Virus record (IMG/VR): IMGVR_UViG_3300008740_000006
Location: 1 to 62,221 of that record
Strand: one strand, 5' to 3'
DNA: 62,221 nt
From: a virus
Taxonomy: Duplodnaviria > Caudoviricetes
Made by a program: the position numbers and the translations under genes. Position 1 is the stretch's first letter; the number at the start of each line of letters is the position of its first letter. Below are positions 39,001 through 62,221 of this stretch, one piece after another. Under the pieces are notes generated by a model. It was not told the DNA's origin. It worked only from the letters and a program-made list of their open reading frames with translations, and ran no database searches.

Positions 39001-42000
39001 CTGGAAGCAGGGCTGAGTCAGATGCGTATATCAAGCAGCAGTCTGAGTTGGCTGGCGGTATCGCGAGGGATACATACAGAAACAGAAGGGAGGGAGAGGG
39101 TCCCTATCCGACCGGGAGGGAGAGGGTTTCGGGACCCGAACTTGGTGATCCCCGTCCGGGGATGCTCCCGCGCTTAAGGAAGGAAGCGACCTGGGAAGAG
39201 AGAGGTCTTACGCAGGAGGAAAAGAAGAAGGCTAGGGACAAGAGCAATGCGATTGCTCGCTCGATCCACAAGGGTTCAAGGATTGCTTACGAAAGGGCGA
39301 AGAACAAGAAGAGGCGAGAGCTTCTCGCTGGCCGCGAGGCTGTCCAGCGGAACTACACCTATGAAAGGGAGGATGGATTCGTTGTCAATGAGACAACAGT
39401 CACAGAGAGTGGTCGCAGGAGTAAGCCTGCAACTCGGGCCTTCTTCTCCGGCACTGATCCCTCAGAGGCAGAGACTCAGAGGCAGTCTTACGAGGCGTCG
39501 AGAGTCGGTGGTGAGTCCTTTGGTGGTGATCTAATTGAGGCGGGTGTCACTGCTGAAAATATAAGGCAGCTTCGCGATGACCCGAAGGGTTTTGCCGAGA
39601 GGCTAAAGCCGGATGGCACGAACGCTCCTCCCGCACAGGAAGAGTTGTTGGACAGGTTGGCGAAGGCGATTGAGAAGGAACTTGCCGGTCGAAACCTGCG
39701 TGGAATAGGTGTCAAGATTGTCAGGGGGATGAAGGGAGCGGAGGCTGGATTCAACAGTGTCACCCGTACTATCTCTCTTAGCCTTGATCCCGGGATGGAG
39801 AATCTAAGTGACAAGGAGATACTAGAAGAGCTTGGTCGAAGGACAGATCATGAACTAATTCATTCCCACAGGAAGTCTGGTTTGATTTCTCCAGGGGAAT
39901 GGAAGGTCTTCGTCAGGTACGCGAGAAAGGTTCCCATCAAGGCGAGTGTCTTGAAGCGGATCAATGATAGAAGGTTGGAGAATGGCCTTGATCCCAAGCC
40001 GGTGAGTACGACGTACTACGACTTGGCCCTTGATACCTATGGTGTGAAGGGAGAAGCTGAGGGCTGGTTCGATGATGACTACAACGAAGAAGCTGTGGCT
40101 TTCATGCGTCAGGATTTCGCAAATGATCCTGCGGCAATCACAGGTAAGCCTGCTGCTTTGTTCAGAAGAACTGCGAGCGTAATTGGGAAGCTCAGAAATG
40201 CACTGAACGGCGCTGGTTACAAATCAGATTCTGAAGTCTTTGAAGTTCTTTGGGGCAAGGAGATGGGTAACCGTCTTGCCGCTGACAAGATGTTGGATAT
40301 CTGGTGGCTCAAGAGACGTAATCAGCCTGAGTACAGAGATCTTGTCCAGTACATTGTACTGGCTCAAGAGGCTGGAGAGCTAGGTGCCGCAGAGAGAGCG
40401 GGTGCGTTGAACCAAGAGGGACTCGCTAGGCTTGAGTTGATTCGGTCAAGGATCGGTGATGCAGTTCTCGATCCGGTAGCTGAGTCCAAGCTGAGAAAGT
40501 ACACGGATCTCTTTGGCAAGAGGAAGAGGATTCCGGTTAGATACACAGATGCTCCCCCCGAAGAAGATGTTGAAGAGGGGGTCGTTGTCGAGGATCAGGG
40601 CACTGGTCGCGCTGCTCTTCGTCGGGAAGACCTTGTTCAAGATGATGGAGTTCAATCAAGGGCTAGGACTGGTGGCGAGTATGGACCCAACGGTGATTGG
40701 TATGCCGGTGGGCAGTGGATAGCTACAACTGAGCTTCCAAAGAGGGAGCGTTCAAAGATAGAGAGGTCTGCCTCAAAGAAAGAGCAGGTTGAGTTCTTTG
40801 AGGGGGGTGTCGAGATTGATCCTGGGAGGATTCCTATCGTTGCTCGTGGTGGTGGAACATGGCTTAAGCCAGATGGAAGATTGAATTATGATTTCATTGA
40901 AAGACAAGGATGGAGTGACCAGAAAATTGCTGAAGCAGAGAGTATGTCTGAGGCGTACCTTCGTGGTGAGCGTTTTGTTGGAGCAGTAGAGCATCCAATT
41001 TTGGCTAGTTTTCAGGATGCATCAAGAATGATTTTGGCAGGGATGAGTGTCCCTGGTGCAATGCTGGACAAATTTTCACCCGATGTTCGTGATAGACTTG
41101 AACGATTAGCTCCACAAGAACTTGGAGTTCCTATTACCGAAGGCACTGGTCGCGCTGCGTTGAGAAGAGATATAACACCAGAGATACAAGAGGCGGCTCG
41201 TCAGGAAACTAGCAGGGGTGCTGATGCTGTAGCGGACAGGATGGATGCGATCTTGCCGGAGGCTGAAAGGCTTACAGATGGTTCGTCTACTTACACTGCG
41301 GGGCAACCGGATGGTGTTCCCTGGACCGATCTTTCTCAGACAGAGTTGAACGAGCGAGGTGCTGGCATCAGAGATGTCGGAGAGCTTAGAGAAGCTCTCG
41401 TTGATATATGGCAGGAGACGCTGAATCGTGTGAGCATCGCAGCGAGGGATGCCGTAGAGGAAACGGGAGCATCGTTCAGTCTTCTTCCAGAAGAAGTGGA
41501 CGCTGCATTCCGCCTCCCCCTTAGCGCACAGCTTTGGTACGAGTTGGGTGGTGAGACGTTTGGACAAAATCTTCCACCCCTGGATAATCGCACTATGGGT
41601 CTTTTCTTTGATCTAATCGGTGCAACTTCTGCGCGGACTGAGCCAAGAGATAATATGTATCGTGCGATTTCGGTTCTTTCTCAGGTTCTAAGGGAAGTTC
41701 CAGTTGATGTAGATCTTGCTATGACTGGTCCCGTTGGGAAGGCTCTCTCTCGCGATGGTGTAGATGTAACTAATTTGGATGGAAACAAGACTGGTCAATT
41801 TAGTGGCACTCTCATGCTTACGTCTGGCATGCCAGTTCCTGTTCCATTCCCTGTAAATGATGTTTGGGTGGGTCGCATTTATGATGTAACAGAGAAGCAG
41901 CTTGCTGATAATCCCAGCTTGCATGAAGTGATGGCAGTTCACCAGACTCTTCTGACAAAGTGGATCAACGAGAACTCACCCCAAAAAATTCCTCACCAAC

Positions 42001-45000
42001 CCTGGCAGACACAGGCTAGAAACTGGGTTCAGTTGCGAACTTCCGATCAAGGTGTTGATACGTCTGGTTCACTTGAGAACATCAGGGGTAATGATTATCG
42101 GTCTGAGTGGGCCAATATGATTCAGCTTCTCAAGTCTGCTGGCGTGGGAGGTATTGATGGACAAAAACTTTCCATCGATGCACTCCTAGACCCCAAGTTG
42201 GTTGACGCACTTCGTCCAACTGTTCCCGTCTTCCGCAAAATTCCGAAGGCGACGGTCGAAGTAGGTACCTTGCTTACGGATACGGGTCGTTCAGCTAGGA
42301 TGCTGTTTGACTTAGCCCAGTCTGTTGGTGACAAGTTGTCGGAGAGGGAGTATCTGGCAACTCTTACAGGTCCGATGTCGGCTTCAGCGAAGGGCAAGCC
42401 AACCCCGTGGGAGGAGTTGGTCCGTGCGATTACTGGTCGCTCCGATAAATTGTCGCGGATTGTTAGTGCAAGAGTTAATGCACCATTCGCAGTAGCTGGA
42501 ACATATGAGGGTGCTGTTGCACCTAACTTGCGAATACCACTTGGTCAGATTCTGGGCGCAGGTGTAGTTCTTACCGATGAGCAGATTGAAATTTTCAATG
42601 CGATTGCTGGTGAGCATTTGTCGCAGGCAGCAATGGCGGCTAGCCATGTAAGGCTTTTGAATGATGGTGAAGCTGTTCCGGAGGGATCGACAAAGGGTTA
42701 CTCAGTTTTCCTGAATGGTGAGATCGAGATGACTGAAGATCTTCTAAGGTCTTTAGATCAAGCATTGCCAGAAGGACATTCTCTTAGTGGATATGAAGTT
42801 CCTGGTGGATATGTCTTAGATGTTAATCCACGCTGGGATGATGATGGTCCGCTGGGAATTTCTCAGGATGAAATAGACGCTGCAATTGTTTCTTCTGGAT
42901 TTGACAAGCTTGGCATTCCTGTTGGAGTTAAGAGACATGCCTATCGGAGTGTGTATACTGAGAATACTGATTACTCTGTAATCAAAGATCGGTTTACAAG
43001 GGGGATTTTTGAAGATGTCATCGAAGAACTACAAAGACTTGGAGTCGGAGAAGAGCAAGCTTCTGCCGCAGCCGTCGCAACGCGAGCAACAGGAGGCGAA
43101 ACAGGATTTGATTTACTCGGGAAAGTTTCGGCTGTCACCAGAGGCAGAGCGAAAACTGTCCTCAAGCGTTACGGGAGGCGCCTTCGTAATCTCGCCCACG
43201 CCGAGGGTGCGATCCAGGGAATCGCGAGAGACGTAGAGAAACGTCAGCAAGTTTATCTTGAGAAAGCTTCAAAGAGGTTAATCAAGGCAGGCCACCTAGA
43301 TGCTAGGCGTGTCCAAACGTCTTCTTTTCGTTCAGCAAGAGATGTTCGGTTGGGACTGCCTGCGCGCAGAACTATTTCAGATCAGCCAATTGATCCTGTT
43401 GCTTCCAAAACATCTGAAACTTTCCCTGGCACAGGTGAGGGGAGAGGTTTTCTCTCCCAACTTCCACCACATCTAAGAGACAAGACTACCGGTTACCCTC
43501 TATCCACTAAAGATACTGGTCGCTCTGCTGTTCGTCGTGGTGATGTTGGAGTGCCAGATTCCTTTAACCAAGTTTTGATTGTTCATGGTCCCTGGGCAGA
43601 AAGAATTCTTAGTGGTGAGAAGACCGTTGAGACTTCTGGTCAATCCCTTAAGGCTGATGGGGCTGCGCCCGGATGGGTTTTACTTCGTGATGACAGTGGT
43701 AGAGCCGATGGTGCTGCGAAGCTTGGTAAGCGAATACTCTACAATACTGAAGAAGAGTTCTTGGAAGACCAAGACAAACATTTGGTTACTAAGGGTGATG
43801 AGTTCTATTTTGGTAACCGTGTTCGTACATATGGATATCCAATTGAAGATGTTATTCGCTTTGATGAGTCGGTAGATATTCCTCCGCTTGGTAGGGATCA
43901 GAGAAGAATAAAGCCTCTCGGCAAGCCTATTGGTAACCCTCTCTCTACTGAAGGCACTGGTCGCGCTGCTGTTAGGCGTGAGCTAATTGGTATTACACCA
44001 GATGATGTTTCTGGAATATCCGATACGACATTCTTTCATGGTACTGATGCTACTGACTTGACCACTATCAGGTCTGGTAGCGAGGGTGGTTCTCTTGGAA
44101 ATGGTATTTATCTAACACCGTATGCTGAAAGGGCGACAGGCTGGGGGAGGAATGTTCTTCCTGCGAGAGTTGACATTAAGAATCCATTGGTTGTTGATAC
44201 ATCAACGGATGATTTTCGTAATCCGGCAGTAGATTTGCTTGTTCAGCTTGGTGTTAGTGAGGATGGTGCGTTTAATATTGTAGAGAAGGAGGAGGAGGAA
44301 TACGGGTATGTTAGGAACAAGATTAGATCGAGAGCAAGGTCGCAGGGCTATGATGGCATAGTTCAATTTGTGGATGGGAATCTTTCTGAGGTTGTTGCGT
44401 TTAACAAGAATCAGGTTTCTATCCAACCCGCTCCACTCGACACCGAAGGCATTGGTCGTGCTGCTGTTCGGCGTGAAGAGATGGGTATCCTTAGCCCGGA
44501 TCAGGCGAGGGCTCAGGCACGCACTGCCTCGTTTGATGAGTTAACAGGCAAGTGGTCTGACGGTGCATTCATTCCTGTTGGTGACTGGGAAAATTCTGAG
44601 TTCTTAGATCTCAGCAAGGGTCTTATTCCTAGTGCGAGAGAGATGAATGAGAAAGGTAAGAAGTTTGGTGATCGCGTTCAGAAGAATCGGGAGTTAGATG
44701 AGAACGGTGGTTGGACTGACAGGAACGGCAGGTACCGTAGGCTTTTGGATGGTACGAAGGCGAGGGTTCGGATAGACATACCCTTCTTTAATGAGACTGG
44801 TAAGTACGTTCAGTCCATTCACGGTGAGGGCTCCAGGCTTCCCGGAATTTCTGTTGGTTATGATTCGGTTGTACGGCTTCGTGGTCCGGTATCGTTTGAA
44901 TCTGATGAGGTAAGGGCGGGGGAGGTTCTGAATGAAGGAGAGTACAAGTCTCCGTTCGCAACAGTAGAGGGGGAGCTTACTCAGGATAGGTCTAGGCCCA

Positions 45001-48000
45001 AGGATATAGACAAATGGACTCCTGTTGGATTCGATCCTCACAAGGGAGTTTACTTCTACGACAAGAAGAACGGTCGTGAGGTTATCGGCGGAACGGATGC
45101 TTACTCAGTAGGCAATACGGTCTATGTCAGAGAGGTTGAGTACGGGAAGAGAAAGCTAAGAGCATCGACTCGCCCGCGTAGAAGTTTTGTTGGTCGTGCT
45201 GCTGTTCGGCGTGAAGAGTCACAGGATTCTGTCCGCAATCCCAGTGATAGAAGATCTCTGAGTATTCCCCCCTGGAAGGAGGCTGAGGCAAAGGAGAGGC
45301 GGCATGATGCTGGTGGCCTTTGGCCTTTCACTTGGGGCTTCATCAAGTTCAATGCTGAAGGTGAGTACAGGAAGGCAGGGAATGGTGTTCCCCTCTTAGT
45401 TCCCTACGGCTCGACTGCCAAGTATGGCGAGAGACACATTGAGTTGCCCAGGGTTCTTCCGAATGGAACCGAGAGGCCGAGTCATGATGAAGAGATTCGC
45501 AACAATACTCCCTACGAAAACTGGAAAGAGTTTATCCAGGGATTTGCAAGGTCTATGGGCCTGCAGCCCAGGGGGCTAAAGGGTGGTGACATTATTCCCC
45601 TTCATCAGCCATTTGATAACAAGATGGTTTTCTTCTGGGATGATGCCGAGTTCAAGAGTCCCGGTGTTGTTGTTATGGAGTACAGGAATGGAGAGGTTGT
45701 TGATGGCGTTGAACTCCCCGATCACTACTCACTGACTACTGCGTTTGTTTCAGAGAGATACGGTGAGAACATGCCTCCTCCCAGTAAGTTTACTGGTCCG
45801 CAGAGAGGCAAGGGTGTTAAGACCAAGTCGGTGATGGTGTTTGAAAACTATCGTCGCCCGGAGGTGGCGGAAGCTTGGTGGAAGACCCAGTCCTCAAAGG
45901 GCAGGTTCGCTGTTGATCGAAGTGCAGCTTACAGTTCAGTTGCTCAGAAGGATGCAGTAGGCAAGCTTGTTCCCCAGGGAGAGCCGAACGCAGATAGCCT
46001 GATCGGTCGCATGATAAAGGCAATCATGTGGCGACAGGAGTACGACATTCCTTGGATCGAAGAAGCGAGAATGCGCTACCTCGATAGGTACGAAAGGATT
46101 TTCACCCAGGGAGTTTCTGCCACAGAGAAGCGCATAGAGAAGATGAGGGCAGATGGAAAGCTTGGACTAACGGTCTACGAGATGGCATCCGTTTCTGCTC
46201 ACGCTATGGCGCTTCTGGTTGATCGGGTCGGATCTCTCACGGAGAACGCGATGCTCTTCGGCATCCCCGTATTCTCCAAGCTTGAGCTACCCGGTGGTCA
46301 CGCATCAGAGGGGTCTGTCTACATAGAAGAGACTGAGCTTGTTAGCGAGACTCGTTCGAACATCCCCGTTTACAATCCAGAGACAGGTTCGATTGAATAC
46401 GGAAAACATGTTGCTCCCAATCCTGATGCTTGGTCTGGAACTGGTGGTATCTGGAAGATACTTGGGACGATTGGTCGCCCTGATGAGAATCGGAGCGTGA
46501 AGACCTTTGCCTTTGGTCGTGCAGTTAGGGCGTACAACAAGCTCAAGTATGAGAATAAGCCGGTCCCGTTTGATGATGAGACAATTCGAGAGGGACTTCA
46601 GATTGGCTGGGAAGATCCAGAGATTGTTGTTGCATGGGAAAACATGCAGAACTGGAACAAGGGAGTGGTCAAGTTCCTTGTTGATACAGAGACAATAACG
46701 AAGGAAGAGGCTGCTGTTTGGGTGGAGCATGCTGACTATCTACCGTTCTATTTGAACCTAGACGGTGAGATGACAGAGGAGATGCAAAGGGTATTCAGGG
46801 ACAAGCTGAACAAGGATTCCTCGTATCGCTTCTTGGATAGTATCCTGCCTACTACTCCTTCCAAGAAGTACAGGGGATTCAGCCAGGGCGAGTTGGTTGA
46901 TCCCATTACTGCCTTGATGAGGAACACGAATGCTCTTTTGACTGCTGGTGTTCAGAACCTTGCAGCAAGAAGGGCTATCCGAGATCAAGAGATTCATGAA
47001 CAGGCTCGCAAGGTGGATGCTCCGACTGCGTCTACGGTGAGTGTTCGCGAGAAGGGCAAGGTGGTTCATTATGAGATTGATGATGAGCCGATGCTTCGCA
47101 CAATGATGGGATCCTTTGATGGTGTTGCCCCGGAAGTTCACGGGTTGATCAAGGCAGCTTCTATTCCAGCAAGAGTTCTCAGGGAGATGGTTACGAGGAT
47201 GCCCGATTTCATGTTTGGAAATACGGGTCGCGATTCAGTCTTTACTTACAATGTTCATGGCACAGACAAGAATCCAGTTAGTGCCTTGTACAGTTCCTAT
47301 TCAATGCTTTTTGAAAGACTGATCAATAGATACAAGGGGGCTAGGACTGGAGATCCAACAAAGGGATTCAGTGAGATCTATTCGATGATCAAGAGAACTG
47401 GAGGTGTTGGCGGTTACGAGATGAGAGATACGGACCTCAACAGTATCCAGCGTAAATTTATGCGTGGCATAAATCAGGAGAAGAATGTAGTAGCTGTGAT
47501 CGGAAAGATGTGGGATGCCCTTGGAGAGGCGAGCAACATTGCTGAGAACATTGCTCGCGAGAAGGTGTTTAGAGATTCCTATGAATCTGCCAAGGCAGAT
47601 TACATTACGATGGGTTTGTCCGAAAAGGATGCAGGCATCCAGGCAATGATGGAGGGTGGGCATCAGGCTGTTGAGGCTTTGAATTTCGGAAGGCACGGAA
47701 ATTCCGAGGGCTTGAAGCTCCTCACATCGGTTGTTCCGTTTACGAACTCACGCATTCAGGGACTAGATGTGTTTGCAAGGAGTGGTATAAGCGGCAGGAA
47801 TATCTTGCGAAAGGATTCGAAGGCTGCTCGCACTGCCCTGGTGAGGCGTGGTCTTTACATTGCTGGGATGAGCATGCTCTACGCGATGATGACCCACGAT
47901 GATGATGACTTTGAAAGACAACCTCTCCATGTAAAGGCTGACAATTGGCTGATCCCGTTGGGTCCGTTCGCTTCCAAGGATGTTAAGTTCCTTGCTATTC

Positions 48001-48785
48001 CGACTCCGTTTGAACCGGGTATTATTTTCAAGTGGTTGCCGGAAAACATTGTTCGTGTTGCAATGGGTCAGACCCTGGATGAATCATTGGACGCTGCGAT
48101 GCATTCCACATTCTCCACGCTGAACTTCAATCCGATACCCCAAGCTGTTAAGCCTATTGCAGAGGCGGCTTTCAACATAAACATGTTTACGATGCAACCG
48201 ATTGTTCCTTTCTATATGGAGGGCGTTAAGACTTCGGAGCAGTATCGAGACACAACTCCTGCTGTTGCGAGGCTTCTCGGCAAGGCGGAAGTGGTGAGTC
48301 CCCTCACTATCGAGAACACGCTTCGTGGTTACTTTGGTTCCGTTGCAACGTATGCATTCTTTGCATCGGACTGGATTCTCCACCGTCCAGCCTTTGGCTT
48401 CACTACAAAGCCAACATCTCTTATGAGTCAGAAGCCTTTCTTCAGAAGGTTCCTCAAGAGTGGGCTTGGTACGAAGGATGCTGATTCTTTCTACGAGGTC
48501 AGGGGCAAGATCAATGAGGTAGTTCAAACTGTTAACATCCTCAAAGAGAGAGATCCCGGCAGAGCCCTCAAGTATGAGATGGAGAATGCAAATGTCTTGG
48601 TCTTCAAGGACATGGTCCGAGATATTGATAAGTCCTTGAGCGAGCTTCGCTCGCAGGAAAGGATGATCAGGCGAAGTGGTATGTCTGATGACGAGATGAG
48701 AGACGCCCTATGGAACCTGAACAACATGCGCGCCTCGCTGATGAGTATGTCTCCAGCAATGCGTAGGCAGATTAACAGTTGGTAA
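36024..48785 (+). CDS. Giant polyvalent virion protein: SLT transglycosylase, zincin metallopeptidase, glycosylase-like, ASCH, ART-PolyVal-like, PBECR-like and LPD38-like domains
   Basis: ESNF...GLFQL...AAYNAGPGAV...ETEDYV; HELIH at 39849; PWAERILSGEKTVE; FHGT...GIYLT...GYDGI; GERHI...H...TTAF; NFGRHG...PFTNSRIQG...IPTPFE. Confidence 0.85.
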   Translation: MIRSMAGRYTSSELEGFLSSATDLYGNPLSSGSISGANREDLLRYLEEESRKRGINPALAASMMEQESNFDPSIASRVNEDREGEYRAAGLFQLAPETARELGVSNPLDVRESIRGGLTYIDRLLTKYGDDPILAVAAYNAGPGAVDKYGGIPPYQETEDYVRRVTGSFEDSQGNTINRYEENMRRFGVPLPGEEEAPVDEVARAEPVEEEAEDTYELILPDGSFMNVPIGIDKEEARESAREAYPMAFRGEVSEEEESNMLDAGLSALYRSVYGIPIGASYVGALFGDDQEAFDLTSERLHGISKTAHGFAPGLTTLDDVSRAYEDEGVLDAAAKFIEFSGEKIGESLGFMLPSIVSGAALGWLGALAGSVIAPGVGTVVGGLTGRALGAVVGRTMGFLGTQVFNYLSMNIERGVENGQVSVDDYNLINQTMAAGTQAGLDGLLVLMAGGKVALGVGTEIATTAGRQAITRGGAQGLSKGGIEAVRNSFAQTMAGLEALSPVKRMGAVMLEESVAELGQQAIERGAAGLEVSPASKEARDEYLEVLLSTIGPSFAFGGIGGVSAKWSQTKQKRAEEGLVKSYEDRALVVNNQVKSAEEAEANELERVAGEAAEAGRIPLEASLLAAPTAADIHTIAKDRNINSEDAGFHQFSRRTVGKEHLDDMNAAELKQVYDKLASMPVQDARISFSVANNQDAIDVASRIRSNSSKKSGAIPLSDTDSQIRTAIQQTGKLNFKNVDKKVVDETVAAYRRAMVNLRLVEKKDGKLRLVRTRPTTSSALTEVEYDKVVDFINLEGRFPNPEEFGSITGIRNEEFYELAIQDAVNRNDIKLDKDGYVPVEPTSQREERFFLRVNGVTEDKSYRTEAQANEARGERIRSFEESAAARTREELAARGRGILPSRLTAPAEELAPSVEVVSADTPLLSSPKADLVTEYEYSVEESPQWVVRDDTAGSEPVGNYDNEEQARKKAKQLGDQKSWVVRDSNGVVVNTSGSRAESDAYIKQQSELAGGIARDTYRNRREGEGPYPTGRERVSGPELGDPRPGMLPRLRKEATWEERGLTQEEKKKARDKSNAIARSIHKGSRIAYERAKNKKRRELLAGREAVQRNYTYEREDGFVVNETTVTESGRRSKPATRAFFSGTDPSEAETQRQSYEASRVGGESFGGDLIEAGVTAENIRQLRDDPKGFAERLKPDGTNAPPAQEELLDRLAKAIEKELAGRNLRGIGVKIVRGMKGAEAGFNSVTRTISLSLDPGMENLSDKEILEELGRRTDHELIHSHRKSGLISPGEWKVFVRYARKVPIKASVLKRINDRRLENGLDPKPVSTTYYDLALDTYGVKGEAEGWFDDDYNEEAVAFMRQDFANDPAAITGKPAALFRRTASVIGKLRNALNGAGYKSDSEVFEVLWGKEMGNRLAADKMLDIWWLKRRNQPEYRDLVQYIVLAQEAGELGAAERAGALNQEGLARLELIRSRIGDAVLDPVAESKLRKYTDLFGKRKRIPVRYTDAPPEEDVEEGVVVEDQGTGRAALRREDLVQDDGVQSRARTGGEYGPNGDWYAGGQWIATTELPKRERSKIERSASKKEQVEFFEGGVEIDPGRIPIVARGGGTWLKPDGRLNYDFIERQGWSDQKIAEAESMSEAYLRGERFVGAVEHPILASFQDASRMILAGMSVPGAMLDKFSPDVRDRLERLAPQELGVPITEGTGRAALRRDITPEIQEAARQETSRGADAVADRMDAILPEAERLTDGSSTYTAGQPDGVPWTDLSQTELNERGAGIRDVGELREALVDIWQETLNRVSIAARDAVEETGASFSLLPEEVDAAFRLPLSAQLWYELGGETFGQNLPPLDNRTMGLFFDLIGATSARTEPRDNMYRAISVLSQVLREVPVDVDLAMTGPVGKALSRDGVDVTNLDGNKTGQFSGTLMLTSGMPVPVPFPVNDVWVGRIYDVTEKQLADNPSLHEVMAVHQTLLTKWINENSPQKIPHQPWQTQARNWVQLRTSDQGVDTSGSLENIRGNDYRSEWANMIQLLKSAGVGGIDGQKLSIDALLDPKLVDALRPTVPVFRKIPKATVEVGTLLTDTGRSARMLFDLAQSVGDKLSEREYLATLTGPMSASAKGKPTPWEELVRAITGRSDKLSRIVSARVNAPFAVAGTYEGAVAPNLRIPLGQILGAGVVLTDEQIEIFNAIAGEHLSQAAMAASHVRLLNDGEAVPEGSTKGYSVFLNGEIEMTEDLLRSLDQALPEGHSLSGYEVPGGYVLDVNPRWDDDGPLGISQDEIDAAIVSSGFDKLGIPVGVKRHAYRSVYTENTDYSVIKDRFTRGIFEDVIEELQRLGVGEEQASAAAVATRATGGETGFDLLGKVSAVTRGRAKTVLKRYGRRLRNLAHAEGAIQGIARDVEKRQQVYLEKASKRLIKAGHLDARRVQTSSFRSARDVRLGLPARRTISDQPIDPVASKTSETFPGTGEGRGFLSQLPPHLRDKTTGYPLSTKDTGRSAVRRGDVGVPDSFNQVLIVHGPWAERILSGEKTVETSGQSLKADGAAPGWVLLRDDSGRADGAAKLGKRILYNTEEEFLEDQDKHLVTKGDEFYFGNRVRTYGYPIEDVIRFDESVDIPPLGRDQRRIKPLGKPIGNPLSTEGTGRAAVRRELIGITPDDVSGISDTTFFHGTDATDLTTIRSGSEGGSLGNGIYLTPYAERATGWGRNVLPARVDIKNPLVVDTSTDDFRNPAVDLLVQLGVSEDGAFNIVEKEEEEYGYVRNKIRSRARSQGYDGIVQFVDGNLSEVVAFNKNQVSIQPAPLDTEGIGRAAVRREEMGILSPDQARAQARTASFDELTGKWSDGAFIPVGDWENSEFLDLSKGLIPSAREMNEKGKKFGDRVQKNRELDENGGWTDRNGRYRRLLDGTKARVRIDIPFFNETGKYVQSIHGEGSRLPGISVGYDSVVRLRGPVSFESDEVRAGEVLNEGEYKSPFATVEGELTQDRSRPKDIDKWTPVGFDPHKGVYFYDKKNGREVIGGTDAYSVGNTVYVREVEYGKRKLRASTRPRRSFVGRAAVRREESQDSVRNPSDRRSLSIPPWKEAEAKERRHDAGGLWPFTWGFIKFNAEGEYRKAGNGVPLLVPYGSTAKYGERHIELPRVLPNGTERPSHDEEIRNNTPYENWKEFIQGFARSMGLQPRGLKGGDIIPLHQPFDNKMVFFWDDAEFKSPGVVVMEYRNGEVVDGVELPDHYSLTTAFVSERYGENMPPPSKFTGPQRGKGVKTKSVMVFENYRRPEVAEAWWKTQSSKGRFAVDRSAAYSSVAQKDAVGKLVPQGEPNADSLIGRMIKAIMWRQEYDIPWIEEARMRYLDRYERIFTQGVSATEKRIEKMRADGKLGLTVYEMASVSAHAMALLVDRVGSLTENAMLFGIPVFSKLELPGGHASEGSVYIEETELVSETRSNIPVYNPETGSIEYGKHVAPNPDAWSGTGGIWKILGTIGRPDENRSVKTFAFGRAVRAYNKLKYENKPVPFDDETIREGLQIGWEDPEIVVAWENMQNWNKGVVKFLVDTETITKEEAAVWVEHADYLPFYLNLDGEMTEEMQRVFRDKLNKDSSYRFLDSILPTTPSKKYRGFSQGELVDPITALMRNTNALLTAGVQNLAARRAIRDQEIHEQARKVDAPTASTVSVREKGKVVHYEIDDEPMLRTMMGSFDGVAPEVHGLIKAASIPARVLREMVTRMPDFMFGNTGRDSVFTYNVHGTDKNPVSALYSSYSMLFERLINRYKGARTGDPTKGFSEIYSMIKRTGGVGGYEMRDTDLNSIQRKFMRGINQEKNVVAVIGKMWDALGEASNIAENIAREKVFRDSYESAKADYITMGLSEKDAGIQAMMEGGHQAVEALNFGRHGNSEGLKLLTSVVPFTNSRIQGLDVFARSGISGRNILRKDSKAARTALVRRGLYIAGMSMLYAMMTHDDDDFERQPLHVKADNWLIPLGPFASKDVKFLAIPTPFEPGIIFKWLPENIVRVAMGQTLDESLDAAMHSTFSTLNFNPIPQAVKPIAEAAFNINMFTMQPIVPFYMEGVKTSEQYRDTTPAVARLLGKAEVVSPLTIENTLRGYFGSVATYAFFASDWILHRPAFGFTTKPTSLMSQKPFFRRFLKSGLGTKDADSFYEVRGKINEVVQTVNILKERDPGRALKYEMENANVLVFKDMVRDIDKSLSELRSQERMIRRSGMSDDEMRDALWNLNNMRASLMSMSPAMRRQINSW

Positions 48786-50423: not shown

Positions 50424-50456
50424 GGGGGGAGTCGCTTAGGCGGCTCCCCCCTTTTG
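50424..50456 (+). terminator. Terminator ending the late operon
   Basis: GGGGGAGTCGC-TTAG-GCGGCTCCCCC-TTTT; preceded by long hairpin GTAGGTGGCTTC/GAAGCTACCTAC. Confidence 0.75.
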
Positions 50457-50461
50457 CGATT

Positions 50462-50493
50462 GCCCCGTTTCCACCGGGCGGGGCCACCCCGGT
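50462..50493 (-). ncRNA. H-type pseudoknot repeat, copy A
   Basis: ACCGGG-GUG-GCCCCG-CCCGGU-GGAAA-CGGGGC. Confidence 0.65.
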
Positions 50494-50549
50494 TCACAGC
50501 ACAACATGGTCACCCTGGGGGATGGGGTAGCGTTGTGCCGTGAAGAGTT

Positions 50550-50586
50550 GTCCCGTTTTGGAACCATCGGGCGGGACCACCCCGAC
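50550..50586 (-). ncRNA. H-type pseudoknot repeat, copy B (compensatory changes)
   Basis: GUCGGG-GUG-GUCCCG-CCCGAU-GGUUCCAAAA-CGGGAC. Confidence 0.65.
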
Positions 50587-50764
50587 ATGGTCGAAGGTAC
50601 TCGGCGCAGTGAAAGGGAGATAACTCCACGCCTTTCCCTCCGGGTTCATCGCGCCTCGCCCACACAGAAAACGAGGCACGATTCAATCGCACCTGACGCA
50701 TTTTTATCTTCGGCAGAAGCAGAATACGGCATGCCATTTGCCACACTTAGTCATTTCCATCCTC

Positions 50765-51301
50765 CTAGTTACTTCTTGTAGAAGGCGACCATTGCCTTCT
50801 GTGTAGAAGTGACGATCCAAGCAGGAATCGTCTCTTGACGGTGAATGGAGGTAACCAAACCTCTCCCGTGAAGTGCATCTTGTTACCAGGGAATGCAGCA
50901 ATTCTACGCGGACCATCTTGCGGTCTGTCAACATCGGGTTCGGTGTAGTAGTCCCAGTCCAGAACGACAAGTTTGCGCGTACCCTCCACTTCGATGCCGA
51001 CAACTTCTGCACCAGCATTCAACTTCGCCGTGGGTCTCTCGGACACCTTGAACGGATGAGAAGCTATCCACAGCAAGCTACCAGCCTCTGTTCTAGAGTC
51101 ACACTTCGGCCACCGCAGTTCACACATAGCCATTGCCCATTCGTACAAATTGCCTACTCCCTGTTCCAACGGTACGCCTCGCTCGCGATTACACTTGTGC
51201 CGCGTGCGAGGCTTCGCCGCCGCCTTCTCCTTGCGTCTTTTGCCAGAGTGAATCGGCAAGTCTTCAGGCGCGAACGATTCAGTCGATGTAGCGCGGATCA
51301 T
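50765..51301 (-). CDS. Hypothetical protein
   Basis: ATGA overlap with the HTH gene stop; 3' end uncertain. Confidence 0.45.
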   Translation of the reverse strand: MIRATSTESFAPEDLPIHSGKRRKEKAAAKPRTRHKCNRERGVPLEQGVGNLYEWAMAMCELRWPKCDSRTEAGSLLWIASHPFKVSERPTAKLNAGAEVVGIEVEGTRKLVVLDWDYYTEPDVDRPQDGPRRIAAFPGNKMHFTGEVWLPPFTVKRRFLLGSSLLHRRQWSPSTRSN

Positions 51302-51534
51302 CGGAGCCTTACCCTCCCACCTGTTGCTTTGGAGATCTTCCTGCATGTTTCTGGGGAGAACGCATGGCTCAACTTGCGCCTTTCTTCGTCACCATCAAGT
51401 TGTATCAGGGAAGGATTCTCATCTGCTTCTTGGCGGCGAACGATCCGGCTTATGAGTGATTGAGACAGACCGGCCAGCCTCGCGAAATTGTTTTGCGAGA
51501 TCTTCTTTTCACGCAAGTAGTCGTTGAGCTTCAT
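51298..51534 (-). CDS. Cro-like HTH transcriptional regulator
   Basis: MKLNDYL...ISQNNFARLAGLSQSLISRI...KATGGRV. Confidence 0.8.
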   Translation of the reverse strand: MKLNDYLREKKISQNNFARLAGLSQSLISRIVRRQEADENPSLIQLDGDEERRKLSHAFSPETCRKISKATGGRVRLR

Positions 51535-51540
51535 CGGATT

Positions 51541-51951
51541 CTAATCTTCGGATCGAAGCTTCCATACATGCAAGAGCCTTGCGTGATTCGTAGTTCGTTT
51601 CGACTTGCGAAACTCTCCGGTCGGTATGAACTCGCGAGTCTTGAACAGCGAACCCGCTGCTGGCCCAAGAGACTTGATGCCGTATCGATGCTGCAAGACT
51701 CTGCCCACATCATCTGCGGTGGCTGATCCTTTCTGCAGGCAGATCTCGTAAGCGATCCCCCTGGCTAGATCGAGCGACCGGACCTTGGACTTGGCGGCGA
51801 CCAGCATGCCATTCTTCTTTCTGTCCTCAGACTCTTTCTTGTCAAACAAGTTCAGAGGAAACTGTACCGGACCATCTTCTCTCATGTAGTACTCCCTTGC
51901 CAAGTTACCAAATGGCTTCGCATCTAATTGGAATTTGGGTACGTCTCCCAC
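51541..51951 (-). CDS. Hypothetical, winged-helix-like phage protein
   Basis: TADDV...AAGSLF...S.R..NHAR...VW; start uncertain. Confidence 0.6.
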   Translation of the reverse strand: MGDVPKFQLDAKPFGNLAREYYMREDGPVQFPLNLFDKKESEDRKKNGMLVAAKSKVRSLDLARGIAYEICLQKGSATADDVGRVLQHRYGIKSLGPAAGSLFKTREFIPTGEFRKSKRTTNHARLLHVWKLRSED

Positions 51952-52391
51952 TCACCCCAGGGCCACGGGCTTGCGCCCTTTCCATCCCAAGCCACACCCC
52001 AACCTTCCCGTATCAGAATGTCTTTGACGAGATCAAGACGCTGACCTCCTCGGATCACCTCTACGTCGGCCAGCACGATGGTGGGCTCGATCACCAGGGC
52101 CCGGGCCAGGGCAACCCGCAGCATCTCGCCACCCGAGTCGGGGTTTTTATGGGTCGTAATCTTGACCTCTTTGAATTGTCCGTTGCTGTCGCGGAGCAGT
52201 CGATCCACAAACTCTGTGCAAGTTCTTCCGTGGTGAGCCCACTCGCCGCGCGGCTCCGGGCAGTTAACACCGGCCAATCGCAGCCAGACTCGGTGAGTGA
52301 TTCGGAAACCCAGATCTAAGTCTACGATCATCGTGTCACCATCGACCACTCGGGTTGGCGTCGCGAGATACTTGTACTCAAAGCTATTCAT
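51924..52391 (-). CDS. Thermonuclease (SNase-like) with foreign 24-aa segment
   Basis: RVVDGDT...DLGF...RLAGVNCPE; the expected D.YGR motif is replaced by SGGEMLRVALARALVIEPTIVLAD. Confidence 0.8.
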   Translation of the reverse strand: MNSFEYKYLATPTRVVDGDTMIVDLDLGFRITHRVWLRLAGVNCPEPRGEWAHHGRTCTEFVDRLLRDSNGQFKEVKITTHKNPDSGGEMLRVALARALVIEPTIVLADVEVIRGGQRLDLVKDILIREGWGVAWDGKGASPWPWGEWETYPNSN

Positions 52392-52419
52392 TCACATTCC
52401 CCCACATCCGCTCCTTGTT

Positions 52420-52456
52420 GCCCCGTTCTCGTACCACCGGGCGGGGCCACCCCGGT
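52420..52456 (-). ncRNA. H-type pseudoknot repeat, copy C
   Basis: ACCGGG-GUG-GCCCCG-CCCGGU-GGUACGAGAA-CGGGGC followed by AACAAGGAG. Confidence 0.65.
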
Positions 52457-52585
52457 CCAACAGGAACTCTGCAACGAATCCCTTGGTACTTCTATTTCGT
52501 CCGCGTGTGTCCAGCGTTAATTTTTTGGGATGAGGCACTCGTTCACCGTAAGGTTAGAACCCTCCCTCATCCCCTTTGTGCTTAT

Positions 52586-52909
52586 TTAGAATTCTTCATC
52601 CTCTGATGCTGCATCAAATGCATCGCTGTTTGCGGCTACCGGATCTTCCCGTCTTTGTTCTGGTTCAAAGGTCACGAAGGTGTACTGGTTGCCTTGCTTG
52701 GAGGTTCGCTCCCAGGATGCACACCTCATCTTGACAACGTCCTCATCGGTTTCTTTTGCTGCCTCTACGATCTTCCTGAGTGCAAGCTTTGAGATCTCGA
52801 CCGGACCTGTCTTCGACGGATGCTTGTCGCTCTTCTTGTACTTGTTGGGATAGAGCCAGAGCTTTCCCTTTTCATCCTGAGTTGCGTAAGTTCCGTTTCC
52901 GTTTGCCAT
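52586..52909 (-). CDS. Single-stranded DNA-binding-like protein
   Basis: LYPNKYKKSDKHP..TG...ASWERTSKQG..Y; acidic tail ending EDEEF; follows the SSAP gene. Confidence 0.65.
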   Translation of the reverse strand: MANGNGTYATQDEKGKLWLYPNKYKKSDKHPSKTGPVEISKLALRKIVEAAKETDEDVVKMRCASWERTSKQGNQYTFVTFEPEQRREDPVAANSDAFDAASEDEEF

Positions 52910-52931
52910 TCTGCTCTCCTTGATTGTTGGT

Positions 52932-53639
52932 CTACGCCTGTGCATCAGGCAGTTGTTGAAGCTCTTTCTTTCTGTTTGAAAAAGCTTGCATCGTGATCTT
53001 GTGCGCCTCGGGATCTTCCTTCTCCATCTTCTTGATGACTTCCTTGTTGGATCGATACAGGTCCCTGAGTTCCTCAAGGTTCTTCGCACCGCTGGCGAAT
53101 ACATCCAGGGTCATTGCCACCTTGTTCTCCGGTACCTTCCCGTTCCCCTTTGGCCCATCCTTACCAGACTTCTTTGGAGACTTCTTCTTAGTTGTCTTGG
53201 TCGCACTAGACTTGGGCTTGGTTACTTCGGATGTCTCGGCGGGTACGTCATCGAAGTTCTTCTGGTACAGGTTGATGCCCAGTCCCCACATCGCACAAGT
53301 CTTAACCAGTGCGCGCTGCTTGCAGTCATTGATTGCTCGGGCATCGGGATTGATGATTGCGTTGTGCCGATAGTCCATGACTGGAAGATGACAAGATCGG
53401 GTGTGCAAGTTGATCTCAACGAAGCAATGAACCTCTGCGCTCCCGTCATTGAAGTAGTACACACCACCATTGTCATGATGGTGGTACCAGTAGCGAGCTT
53501 GTGGGTACTTGCTTTGCAACAAGATCCAAGCTGCACCCCATGCCAAGTAATCAAGTCCAGCCCTCGGCTCGACCCACTTTGAAACATCAACTGCTGTCAG
53601 TGTTTCCCAGATCTCTTTCGGTCCATGATCTTCAGACAT
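52932..53639 (-). CDS. Sak/Rad52-like single-strand annealing protein (DUF1071-like)
   Basis: LDYLAWGAAW...LPVMDYRHNAI...INDCKQRALVKTCAMWGLGINLY. Confidence 0.85.
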   Translation of the reverse strand: MSEDHGPKEIWETLTAVDVSKWVEPRAGLDYLAWGAAWILLQSKYPQARYWYHHHDNGGVYYFNDGSAEVHCFVEINLHTRSCHLPVMDYRHNAIINPDARAINDCKQRALVKTCAMWGLGINLYQKNFDDVPAETSEVTKPKSSATKTTKKKSPKKSGKDGPKGNGKVPENKVAMTLDVFASGAKNLEELRDLYRSNKEVIKKMEKEDPEAHKITMQAFSNRKKELQQLPDAQA

Positions 53640-61305: not shown

Positions 61306-62221
61306 TCACCCAACAACGTCGATCTCTACGGCCAAGCCGTAGGGAGGTTTGTTCCACTTGCTCACCGGATCGGTGCTTGCCCAAAGGATCGGGCACTTGG
61401 GTGCCGGTCCATATCGGCTATCGCCCAGGTCAGTGAAGACCACAACTGCGTCGGCCTTCTGTCCGTAGCGTCGGTACCAGTTCGACATGCAAGTGAAGTT
61501 CGTTCCGCCTCCGACATTGAAGTTTGTCGGAAGCTTCTTGCCGTGGCGCACCTCAACAACACTGTCGGAGTGGATCGATGTAGAGAAGGGAACCACTGTC
61601 ACCTTCTCGATACGAACCTTCTCCCGAAGCTTATCGATGTTGTTGAAGCAAGCGATCAGTCGGCGACGATCCATCGAGTAGGAAACGTCAACGAAGATGA
61701 GCATCTCGTTGATGCCACTGCAAACCTGACCGGGGATGGGAATCCCAAGAGCAAGACCTCGACGCGACTGCTTCCGGTAAGACGTACCGACCGGAACCCC
61801 TCGCTTCGAAACCCACTCGTTGAAGACCTCGGTCCACGAAGCCTTCGGCTTGCGAACCCGCTCGATGCCGAGACGAAGACCACCTGCACCTTCGTCACCT
61901 GCACGCGCGATCCCTCGCCGCAACTCCTCACTCAGGTCAGCGAGTGCCTTCTGACACTCCTGCTTGTCAAGCGGCTTGCCTTCATCATCGAGTGCCGGGA
62001 AGACCTGACCGAGTGAACCGCTCTCATCGAAGCGCGGAACAACTCGCTCACCATCGTTCACGTTGTCATCGTCGCCGCCAGCATTGGAGTCGCCACCCTC
62101 TCCGTTGCTTCCGGCATCGCTGCCATCGCTGGTGTCTCCCTGGTTCCCTTCATCACCCTGGTCCCCCTGGTTCCCCTGGTCACCGGAGTCACCGGAGTCA
62201 CCGGAGTCACCGGAGTCACCG
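61306..62221 (-). CDS. C-terminal half (acidic linker + VWA domain) of the same DUF2201-type protein
   Basis: Frame is open to the window end (GDSGDSGDSGDQGNQ...). VWA MIDAS-like motifs IFVDVSYSM, GGGTNF and VVFTDL. Confidence 0.85.
   Translation of the reverse strand, partial: GDSGDSGDSGDSGDQGNQGDQGDEGNQGDTSDGSDAGSNGEGGDSNAGGDDDNVNDGERVVPRFDESGSLGQVFPALDDEGKPLDKQECQKALADLSEELRRGIARAGDEGAGGLRLGIERVRKPKASWTEVFNEWVSKRGVPVGTSYRKQSRRGLALGIPIPGQVCSGINEMLIFVDVSYSMDRRRLIACFNNIDKLREKVRIEKVTVVPFSTSIHSDSVVEVRHGKKLPTNFNVGGGTNFTCMSNWYRRYGQKADAVVVFTDLGDSRYGPAPKCPILWASTDPVSKWNKPPYGLAVEIDVVG
62160..62221 (-). repeat. 9-bp GGTGACTCC (Gly-Asp-Ser) tandem repeat at the contig break, continuing at bases 1-45
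   Basis: caccggagt repeated at the end; related units caccggagtcaccatcgtcaccagagt at the start. Confidence 0.85.

Follow-up and report, generated by a model that had tools for sequence, protein, structure and literature searches.

The window, by which we mean the whole stretch of DNA analyzed here (62,221 nucleotides, a complete 62-kb marine phage record), carries on its minus strand three repeats that, judged from sequence, are genuine copies of one small H-type RNA pseudoknot and members of an uncatalogued family of 32-40-nt H-type pseudoknots in uncultured phage and metagenome contigs. Our confidence in the fold and the family taken together is very high. We estimate a probability of about 0.4 that the knot functions in cis at the 5' border of ribosome-binding sites, the main rival to this reading being a directional roadblock to enzymes that track along RNA. 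Very few phage cis-acting RNA structures are understood, and this one is small enough to be synthesized and crystallized.

Three pseudoknot copies in the window

The copies lie as follows:

52420..52456, minus strand: pseudoknot copy C, with the same stems as copy A (covariance model score 42.6 bits)
Parts of copy C, minus strand: S1 52451-52456, L1 (GUG) 52448-52450, S2 52442-52447, S1' 52436-52441, L3 52426-52435, S2' 52420-52425
50550..50586, minus strand: pseudoknot copy B, with stems GUCGGG/CCCGAU and GUCCCG/CGGGAC (39.8 bits)
50462..50493, minus strand: pseudoknot copy A, with an L3 of 5 nt (43.9 bits)

The initial annotation had proposed three minus-strand copies at these positions with a common S1-GUG-S2-S1'-L3-S2' layout, and parsing, shuffling and the covariance model all confirm it. 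The parses read ACCGGG-GTG-GCCCCG-CCCGGT-GGTACGAGAA-CGGGGC for copy C, GTCGGG-GTG-GTCCCG-CCCGAT-GGTTCCAAAA-CGGGAC for copy B, and ACCGGG-GTG-GCCCCG-CCCGGT-GGAAA-CGGGGC for copy A. The 17-nt core CGGGGTGGYCCCGCCCG occurs three times in the window with up to 3 mismatches, compared with 0.24 occurrences expected from shuffles, and three were reached in 0 of 100 shuffles. The best covariance model match in the window outside the copies scores 7.7 bits. Copy B does carry the compensatory changes described for it, with a C-G to U-A swap in both stems and one additional A-U to G-U change. The GG and AA ends claimed for L3 hold within the window, whereas across the family the final A is the only invariant position of this loop. 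The energies of nested folds, calculated with a tool that does not model pseudoknots, are not below those of shuffles for the three copies, and in the window copies the pseudoknot has a competitor, the hairpin CGGGG-UGG-CCCCG.

A scan for sigma-70 promoters gave 3 sites compared with 2.9 expected, none of them beside any copy. An N4-type hairpin promoter was considered and rejected, the 4253-aa protein being a polyvalent SLT/ART/LPD38 protein and not a virion RNA polymerase. One metatranscriptome run yielded only a 158-nt contig at 50922-51079, away from the pseudoknots.

Both stems covary across the family

The family numbers at least 50 distinct versions, spread over 120 contexts, with a consensus of S1 (6 bp of any sequence), L1 of GU(G/U/A), S2 of G-Y-N-C-C-G, no L2, S1', L3, S2' and A. 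L3 ranges from 2 to 11 nt and ends in A (typically GCGAACA). The sequence of S1 is unconstrained so long as pairing holds. The junction is fixed, consisting of S1 G-C pairs beside S2, the S2 end C-C-G/C-G-G and a 3-nt L1 starting with GU; two A residues are fixed as well, the final one of L3 and the one following S2'. An invariant junction combined with free stems usually points to a specific partner or to a special three-dimensional property, and either of these would be a new means of controlling phage genes.

Pairing was assessed in searches that each left one stem or loop unconstrained. With S1 free, 21 distinct variants were recovered, in which S1 pairs at 6/6 positions in 14 and at 5/6 in 5, compared with mostly 1-4 pairs (range 0-5) in controls whose 5' strand was shifted upstream by 1-3 or 7-8 nt; the two failures, L212 and L213, resemble chance matches. 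With the interior of S2 free, nine matches had at least 5 S1 pairs, and eight of these form all six S2 pairs, seven through compensated exchanges (GUACCG/CGGUAC, GCACCG/CGGUGC, GUGCCG/CGGCAC, GUUCCG/CGGAAC) and L364 (GUUCCG/CGGGGC) through G.U wobbles, while L384 forms three. The 14 matches of the same search with at most 4 S1 pairs form 3-5 S2 pairs. With L1 free, this loop measured 3 nt in all 51 instances (GUG 45, GUU 5, GUA 1).

In alignment A3 (50 distinct sequences), 97.8% of stem cells are paired, compared with 34-42% when the partner strand is slid, and changes on both sides occur in 7 of 12 pairs (S1 5/6, S2 2/6); these values are to be read in light of the fact that most alignment rows come from pattern searches fixing parts of the motif, S2 p1, p5 and p6 always among them, and that many rows are close relatives from one clade whose nearest protein matches are actinophages. 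S2 pairing in A3 is 100%, with a model that itself contains no S2 pairs. G.U or U.G pairs stand in 19 stem cells and A.C or C.A in none, which indicates that the sense strand is what folds. The motif thus has the class feature of an H-type knot, two interleaved stems with covariation in each, and the earlier proposal of such a fold at the RNA level is supported by homologues in other phages, where both stems covary and G.U is seen, A.C never; none of the findings named in the initial annotation as refuting it turned up. Six rows (L034, L105, L111, L133, L163, and L186) had been left out of the seed alignment A1: their L3 ends in GG or their S2' starts with U, and they were rejected as plain G+C hairpins or coding sequence.

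A compact H-type fold with no L2, a short L1 and an A-rich L3 is also characteristic of luteovirus-type frameshift pseudoknots such as that of BWYV, which likewise has conserved positions at its junction. By analogy, L1 may lie in the deep groove of S2 and L3 along the minor groove of S1; loop-groove contacts of this kind made by the fixed junction would give a compact, mechanically stiff knot. Unlike the BWYV element, the knot lies after stop codons and outside reading frames, in the message of a DNA phage rather than a plant RNA virus. A slippery heptamer, which a -1 frameshift stimulator needs 5-8 nt upstream and inside a reading frame, was found in only 2 of 119 contexts, and the placement is not that of such a stimulator.

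Distribution and comparison with known RNA classes

The view that the motif is undescribed and belongs to no known Rfam family was borne out in the window and at 15 homologous loci. Rfam 15 gave zero matches at the gathering score over the whole window and, at E<=10 between 50200 and 52800, three unrelated weak matches, none on any copy; at E<=1, the 15 loci gave no match on the motif, with riboswitch and ribozyme models included. Two motif versions run by BLAST against GenBank phages gave only chance partial matches, and motif strings in literature text hit only unrelated primer or promoter sequences. The motif is not in the six supplementary files searched of a catalogue of 10,006 candidate viral structured RNAs (PMC10690425), although it may still be inside that catalogue. 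The accessible portion of a 2026 preprint on genome-language-model mining contains nothing bearing on the motif.

These searches bear on the idea of a new small self-cleaving ribozyme that would cut multi-gene messages at gene boundaries, to which the invariant nucleotides at the pseudoknot junction lend some appeal. No ribozyme family matches, however, and we know of no self-cleaving class as small or as simple as 32-40 nt without internal loops. Such an activity strikes us as extremely improbable.

Alternatively, the junction could form a pocket for a small molecule, making the knot a riboswitch of the 34-nt class, or could be recognized by one specific, conserved host protein, so that neighboring genes would be tuned to the state of the host. 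In size, in its H-type fold and in having variable stems but invariant nucleotides in junction and loops, the knot resembles small pseudoknot riboswitches (preQ1-I, guanidine-III, SAM-II), and the smallest known riboswitch aptamers equal it in size. Most carriers also hold a single copy (one in 17 and two in 2 of 19 other carrier records; one further record, scanned because of what proved a chance pattern match, has none). Unlike those riboswitches, the knot lacks L2, and an expression platform, with the Shine-Dalgarno (SD) sequence or a terminator strand within the aptamer, is absent by eye: the SD lies outside S2', and we saw no alternative pairing with it. The neighboring genes have no common metabolic theme, and no Rfam riboswitch model matches even weakly. 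We therefore hold a sensor or operator of this kind to be improbable.

The number and arrangement of copies also speak to a trans-acting role, in which the knot, excised from or within the message, would titrate some factor of the host, for instance by imitating a type III antitoxin or a different anti-defense RNA. The antitoxins of type III systems (ToxI and relatives) consist of pseudoknot units of ~35 nt, close to the size of our motif, and phages can carry copies of them. The knot is portable and sits in any transcribed gap, and copies are sometimes near-tandem, as with A and B in the window and the two copies of L367, which lie ~90 nt apart. Yet the antitoxin analogy drawn in the initial annotation does not hold up, the window copies being 56 nt (A-B) and about 1.9 kb apart and forming no head-to-tail array. 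Across 185,579 species genomes (one genome per species) neither tandem arrays nor a cellular counterpart came to light, just 23 single matches, mostly coding sequence with unpaired S1, or chance. No PADLOC toxin match of the ToxN/AbiQ nuclease type was obtained in 10 neighboring frames, nor one in Pfam or PHROGs, and no neighbor looks toxin-like or defense-like. The knot is, moreover, rich in G+C, whereas ToxI is A/U-rich. A decoy function appears to us very unlikely. A host repetitive extragenic element or CRISPR-repeat mimic was rejected on the same scan, which revealed neither arrays nor many copies.

The carriers themselves are diverse. By BLASTP, the large terminase alone is common to this phage and 8 other carrier records, and the nearest cultured relatives of carriers are pelagiphages and actinophages, whose bacterial hosts are quite different, so any partner of the knot would be host-wide or absent. 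A 193-aa protein of the window, used as a query for relatives of this phage, found none.

Placement at ribosome-binding sites

All 21 loci examined in detail (5 + 16) are intergenic and share the orientation of the genes on either side. An SD and a start codon follow 15-52 nt past the knot in at least 83 of the 120 contexts, mostly at 20-25 nt. Where distances were measured, the knot lies 4-130 nt after a stop codon and 13-36 nt before a start, and the SD begins 8-18 nt past S2'. The 12 nt past the knot are rich in A and C (A 49%, C 23%, G 8%, T 20%). The downstream genes vary, and include an exonuclease, phrog_1221, a head-tail adaptor and genes after the major head protein.

Copy C exemplifies this arrangement:

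52586..53104, minus strand: gene 5' of copy C, without family match; acidic C-terminal tail with a final F
52384..52419, minus strand: tail of copy C, with an AAC linker, AAGGAG at 52411-52416 and ATG at 52405-52407
51924..52391, minus strand: nuclease gene 3' of copy C; N-terminal half matches phrog_452 endonuclease

As previously noted, AAGGAG stands 3 nt past copy C, at 52411-52416, and the layout agrees with the family pattern of pseudoknot, A/C-rich linker, SD and ATG. The ATG at 52405-52407, 3 nt after AAGGAG, opens a frame of only 7 codons, which stops at 52384-52386 and overlaps the nuclease start at 52391; AAGGAG sits 19 nt ahead of that nuclease ATG. The gene 5' of copy C probably starts at an internal ATG after the Sak gene, and its putative label as SSB-like derives solely from the acidic C-terminal tail.

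The knot is carried in sense orientation in untranslated gaps of the multi-gene messages of unrelated tailed phages. We suggest that its place there is the 5' border of a ribosome-binding site: an unstructured linker rich in A and C would come next, then the SD. From there it could act in cis on the downstream cistron, either as a standby platform on which the 30S subunit or protein S1 docks, or as an insulator keeping the ribosome-binding site open. Either role would set the translation and lifetime of that cistron. A self-contained module before ribosome-binding sites would also be a possible part for synthetic operons.

A precedent is the tisB mRNA of E. coli, in which a 5' H-type pseudoknot with a nearby single-stranded stretch serves as an S1/30S standby site, the knot being proposed to raise S1/30S affinity (PMC7708055). 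A pseudoknot with an adjacent single-stranded stretch before the ribosome-binding site is found in 83 of our 120 contexts. In tisB the knot occupies a 5' end created by processing, and about 100 nt separate it from a binding site that is sequestered (PMC7708055), whereas the knot here is intercistronic with an open SD 8-20 nt away, and the two have no sequence likeness. ACA motifs 5' of the SD boost translation (PMC3879156).

Several points count against placing the function at the ribosome-binding site. Dense phage genomes put any intergenic element near some start; copies A and B in the window have no convincing gene to serve, L085/L202 adjoin a terminator, and several other contexts have no ribosome-binding site, or have one or two hairpins ahead of one. 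The binding of protein S1 is usually not sequence-specific, so it alone cannot account for the invariant junction. Complementarity to, or mimicry of, 16S rRNA was rejected as inconsistent, by eye, between the C and U variants of S2.

In phage T4, an H-type pseudoknot followed by an unstructured stretch leading into the ribosome-binding site of gene 32 is bound by the gene 32 product. An analogy to this operator had been suggested, with the neighboring SSB-like protein as the partner, but neither idea is upheld: the T4 operator lies upstream of gene 32 itself, whereas copy C follows the SSB-like gene and precedes the nuclease gene, and the knots precede many unrelated genes in carriers that have quite different neighbor genes, no common SSB-like protein and only the large terminase in common.

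As a side observation, a weak tRNA-like match (27.6 bits, below threshold) lies 2 nt past the knot at L150/L247, where ARAGORN calls no tRNA.

Copies beside terminators

Some copies precede terminators, among them A and B:

50704..50754, minus strand: Cys-rich micro-frame of 16 codons (MTKCGKWHAVFCFCRR) with a strong AGGAGG ahead; read from sequence
50664..50694, minus strand: hairpin resembling a terminator, its tail rich in T, upstream of copies B and A; found by consensus scan only
50424..50455, plus strand: intrinsic terminator closing the late genes of that strand, GGGGGGAG...CTCCCCCC with TTTT behind it

The two copies are thus flanked by a terminator-like hairpin on one side and the late-operon terminator on the other, with no convincing downstream gene. 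The TGA at 50494-50496 adjoins copy A, in agreement with the reported UGA directly before it, and the 61-aa frame closed by this TGA matched nothing in Pfam, PHROG or PADLOC. Read on the minus strand, the hairpin of the late-gene terminator begins 10 nt past copy A; a weak sobemo_FSE match there was discarded, as it only traces this hairpin. The micro-frame lies between the 193-aa gene and the terminator-like hairpin. Elsewhere, an intrinsic terminator follows within 3 nt of the knot at L085/L202.

Such contexts are accommodated by the main rival reading, a directional roadblock in which a stiff knot stalls an RNA-tracking enzyme (a 5'-to-3' exonuclease such as RNase J, RNase E in 5'-end-dependent scanning, Rho helicase, or a 3'-to-5' exonuclease approaching from the opposite side), so that decay or termination would halt at gene boundaries. 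The cistron on one side would be protected, or a small stable RNA reaching from knot to terminator would be left. This reading, which we consider doubtful but worth serious attention, fits every context, including the knots just before terminators and those right behind highly expressed genes (the SSB-like gene here and the major head protein genes of L053 and L055, which the knot follows by 4-21 nt), and needs no phage partner. A fixed junction with free stems suits a constraint on tertiary structure rather than a recognition code, and the freshwater-clade carriers look like actinophages, RNase J being present in Actinobacteria. However, ordinary hairpins serve this purpose in bacteria, so that one conserved fold across phages is not obviously needed, and neither the tight spacing from knot to start nor the A/C-rich linker is accounted for. 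To our knowledge, simple H-type knots do not stop exonucleases as the ring-forming xrRNAs of viruses do.

With xrRNAs of RNA viruses (bioRxiv 10.1101/2024.12.17.628992), the motif has in common small pseudoknots that sometimes stand in tandem before a 3' end, whereas the topology of a ring around the 5' end is not evident in a plain H-type knot, and the hosts here are bacteria. We consider it unlikely that the knot represents, for the first time in a bacterial virus, an RNA resistant to exonucleases or helicases, a portable, direction-dependent mechanical block handed on among phages of different bacterial phyla. If it did, 5'-to-3' decay or Rho would be halted at gene boundaries, and the tandem of B and A before the terminator would leave a stable small RNA, like flavivirus sfRNA.

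Knots at probable module junctions

Relatives in other marine data sets retain 52417-52700, and their similarity stops precisely where copy C ends on its 3' side; one has 383 other letters in place of the nuclease gene, and in one 16.5-kb contig the knot is the sole sequence in common. Together with the finding that copies C and A are 23-nt direct repeats around a 1.9-kb block, this raises the question of a DNA-level element, such as an operator, a signal in single-stranded DNA or a boundary sequence for recombination, the RNA fold being incidental. Set against it, compensatory changes keep pairing and not sequence, the tolerance of G.U and absence of A.C point to one folded strand, the length of L3 is variable, the orientation is always that of the genes, and recombination at a short common sequence is an expected by-product. 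A DNA-level element seems to us highly improbable.

Under our preferred reading of a cis element at ribosome-binding sites, a short sequence common to unlike phages could also serve as a recombination joint for swaps of gene modules, and gene-less copies such as A and B would be left-overs of such swaps, unless they carry the roadblock function. The knot would then mark points of phage module exchange and bear on the origin of mosaic genomes. The initial annotation had described the copies as bracketing an SNase-wHTH-Cro block, which is literally correct; because the homology of the relatives breaks at the 3' end of copy C, the arrangement is better read as a knot at a module junction. Within this block, residues 72-109 of the nuclease (51924..52391) resemble an ABC-ATPase signature.

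Genome context and the three window copies

The window, 62,221 bases long, is an entire IMG/VR virus record with a completeness rating of 100%, and marine metagenome runs contain DNA near-identical to it. The frames at its two ends, 1-615 (-) and 61306-62220 (-), match consecutive parts of phrog_1314 (profile positions 12-181 and 161-392 of 394) and so form a single gene across the record ends, the genome being circularly permuted or circular. Its large terminase, nearest to that of Pelagibacter phage HTVC027P (54.5% identity), is encoded on the plus strand together with portal, major head protein, virion and ejection proteins, an M15 endolysin and a 4253-aa polyvalent protein (SLT, ART-PolyVal, LPD38). 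The pseudoknots lie on the opposite strand:

54980 to ~50400, minus: leftward operon encoding a PD-(D/E)XK exonuclease, a Sak annealing protein, a nuclease (phrog_452) and an HTH_3 protein; other frames of 172 aa (acidic tail, no family assigned), 136 aa and 193 aa
52540-52578, minus: 9-bp hairpin GGGAUGAGG...CCUCAUCCC, then A6, within the 130 nt that separate copy C from the SSB-like gene
52420-52456, minus: pseudoknot copy C
50704-50754, minus: 16-codon Cys-rich micro-frame after a strong AGGAGG, then a terminator-like hairpin at 50674-50694
50550-50586, minus: pseudoknot copy B
50462-50493, minus: pseudoknot copy A

The initial annotation had described three H-type pseudoknots, and all three are present, parsing as S1(6)-GUG-S2(6)-S1'(6)-L3(5 or 10)-S2'(6), where S1/S1' and S2/S2' are the strands of the two stems, GUG is loop L1 and L3 is the second loop. 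The compensatory C-G to U-A exchanges noted in both stems of copy B are likewise found. The 17-nt core is present three times where 0.24 occurrences would be expected, and 0/100 shuffles gave three. Nested folding of the copies, a method blind to knots, says nothing on the fold; an alternative hairpin, CGGGG-UGG-CCCCG, can compete energetically with the knot in the window copies but not in the commonest relatives.

Copies C and A are 23-nt direct repeats flanking a 1.9-kb block. Copy C is followed by AAC and then AAGGAG, the knot/linker/SD pattern of the wider family; the ATG 3 nt past this AAGGAG opens only a 7-codon frame, and the nuclease start, which this frame overlaps, lies 19 nt past AAGGAG. 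Copies B and A sit between the terminator-like hairpin and the late-operon terminator, and a 61-aa frame crossing copy B has no family match.

Evidence for the pseudoknot fold

Each element of the fold was examined with a search that left it unspecified. For S1, the pattern GTGGTCCCG-N6-N{0,8}-ACACGGGAC omitted the 5' strand and left S1' free; among 21 distinct variants, 14 form 6/6 pairs and five form 5/6, and the two that fail look like chance matches. Controls with the 5' strand shifted upstream give mostly 1-4 pairs (range 0-5). S2 was probed with two patterns that required a base other than C at position 3 or 4 and left the S2' interior free, yielding 42 and 26 loci (23 distinct variants). 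Nine variants have at least five S1 pairs. In eight of them S2 pairs fully, by compensated exchange in seven (GUACCG/CGGUAC, GCACCG/CGGUGC, GUGCCG/CGGCAC and GUUCCG/CGGAAC) and by G.U wobbles in one (L364); the ninth (L384) forms 3/6. The 14 variants with four or fewer S1 pairs form 3-5 S2 pairs, and the position 4 pattern gave no family-like variant. In a metagenome scan omitting both L1 and the 5' S1 strand, the best S1 register leaves a 3-nt L1 in 51/51 cases (GUG 45, GUU 5, GUA 1).

In the pooled alignment of 50 distinct sequences, 97.8% of cells are paired, compared with 34-42% when the partner is slid, and 7/12 pairs vary on both sides. S2 is paired in 100% of cells, though the model contained no S2 pairs. 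Covariation, initially claimed from the window copies, is thus found in both stems among homologues. G.U or U.G occurs 19 times and A.C or C.A never, a pattern that favours folding of the sense-strand RNA over the antisense strand or a double-stranded palindrome. No variation occurs at the first two positions of L1 (G and U), at the A that ends L3, or at S2 positions 1 and 4-6, of which 1, 5 and 6 were fixed by every search pattern; an A follows S2' in 46/50. The conserved positions gather at the helix junction and in loop ends expected to occupy the grooves there, the arrangement of mechanically strong, compact H-type knots. Luteoviral frameshift knots share such an H-type design. Judged from sequence, the window knots are members of a real, covariation-supported family of phage RNA pseudoknots.

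Distribution across phages

An exact core scan of IMG/VR contigs returned 49 loci, mostly chance matches in G+C-rich DNA; seven loci have a matching S2' strand 2-15 nt past S1'. With S1 relaxed, the scan yielded at least 120 loci; a large clade with very different S1 (e.g. GGAUGG/CCAUCU, CACUGG/CCAGUG, AGGAGC/GCUCCU) appears among the 80 matches listed. A covariance model built from a 30-row seed alignment, with six plain-hairpin-like rows left out, matches the window at the three copies only. Among 19 other carrier records, 17 have a single copy by this model and two (G010, G019) have a pair; a twentieth record (G018), the source of a chance match (L212), has none. A scan of 185,579 bacterial and archaeal species, with one genome per species, turned up 23 single matches, nearly all with unpaired S1 or inside conserved coding sequence, and no array, and BLAST against 50,697 GenBank phage records gave nothing convincing. 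The family is, so far, confined to uncultured phages.

Within these it is found across lineages and probably spans host phyla. Between the window phage and eight other carrier records, BLASTP finds the large terminase as the only common protein; the commonest clade's exonuclease is nearest to actinophage exonucleases. Because carriers share so little and cross lineages, any partner must be a host component of a general kind, if one exists at all. A decoy role is highly unlikely, and a defining feature of type III antitoxins, named initially as an analogue, is not seen.

Placement and probable function

At the loci inspected closely (5 + 16), the knot falls between genes and is encoded on their strand. 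It follows two major head protein genes, 4 and 21 nt past the stop, and elsewhere a small gene directly behind a third, or genes for large terminase, methyltransferase, transglycosylase or a repressor-like HTH protein; the genes past it include those for a Cas4-like exonuclease, phrog_1221 and a head-tail adaptor, along with several unknowns. An SD and start codon stand 15-52 nt (mostly 20-25 nt) past the knot in 83/120 de-duplicated contexts (50 distinct knots), a filter that admitted a few probable chance matches, missed three GAGAG-type sites and included two truncated loci. The 12 nt past the knot are A 49%, C 23%, G 8% and T 20%; the preceding 12 nt hold G 28% and T 37%.

Beyond fold and placement, we infer, with a probability of roughly 0.4, a cis role at the ribosome-binding site. 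We rank this reading first because the commonest layout, in which an A/C-rich single strand leads from the knot to the SD, is reminiscent of the bipartite S1/30S standby site of tisB mRNA (PMC7708055), and the linker is reminiscent of ACA translation enhancers (PMC3879156). Second, and more tentatively, the knot could act as a directional roadblock or punctuation, since this alone accounts for terminator-adjacent copies such as those at L085/L202, with an intrinsic terminator at most 3 nt past the knot. Functionally, the family may still resemble standby pseudoknots or xrRNAs. Its function is directly testable.

A sensor or operator is unlikely. The analogies suggested initially with the T4 gene 32 operator and small riboswitches fail as class membership, a defining feature of each class being absent. 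A ribozyme is the least probable reading. No Rfam 15 family reaches threshold across the window and none overlaps a copy at E up to 10, in keeping with the initial view of the motif as new. Literature text searches for motif strings gave nothing relevant, with a large viral structured-RNA candidate catalogue covered in part, where an unnamed entry is possible; the family is apparently undescribed. Frameshift stimulators were rejected, since the slippery heptamer that defines them occurs in only 2/119 contexts.

Some leaders carry one or two hairpins between knot and start. At L193, L242, L262 and relatives, two extra hairpins precede the exonuclease start, whose ATG lies ~113 nt past the knot; the loop of the second hairpin contains CUCCUU. 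Several freshwater-clade members (L196, L194, L367 and relatives) have a covarying 9-11-bp hairpin 6-10 nt upstream of the knot, keeping UCAUUUC on the loop's 3' side (e.g. GUUUGUUCAUUUC), so the full element may be larger there; knots directly after head-protein genes have no such hairpin. At L150/L247, a tRNA-like stretch with a GGUUCGAUUCC T-loop begins 2 nt past the knot (tRNA-Sec model, 27.6 bits, sub-threshold); ARAGORN finds no tRNA there.

Probable module junction at copy C

Contigs of other marine studies match 52417-52700 and diverge at copy C's 3' end; one has 383 other letters in place of the nuclease gene, resuming at 51876, and in a 16.5-kb contig the knot itself (52419-52457) is the sole common stretch. 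We read these patterns as recombination across a short stretch in common, a side effect of the spread of the knot and not its purpose. A DNA-level element, which ranks below even a decoy, is very improbable.

The nuclease gene (51924-52391, minus) may be chimeric, either genuinely or as an artefact of assembly. Residues ~72-109 (52064-52137, minus) resemble an ABC-ATPase signature/Walker B with a weak Pfam ABC_tran match, the PHROG endonuclease match is restricted to residues 2-85, and many unrelated metagenome contigs match, at high depth, this ~40-70-nt ABC-like piece and nothing else. Along the polyvalent protein (36024-48785, plus), a motif of the type G-[TI]-GRAA-[VL]-RR-[ED] recurs at least six times; these repeats may be processing sites.
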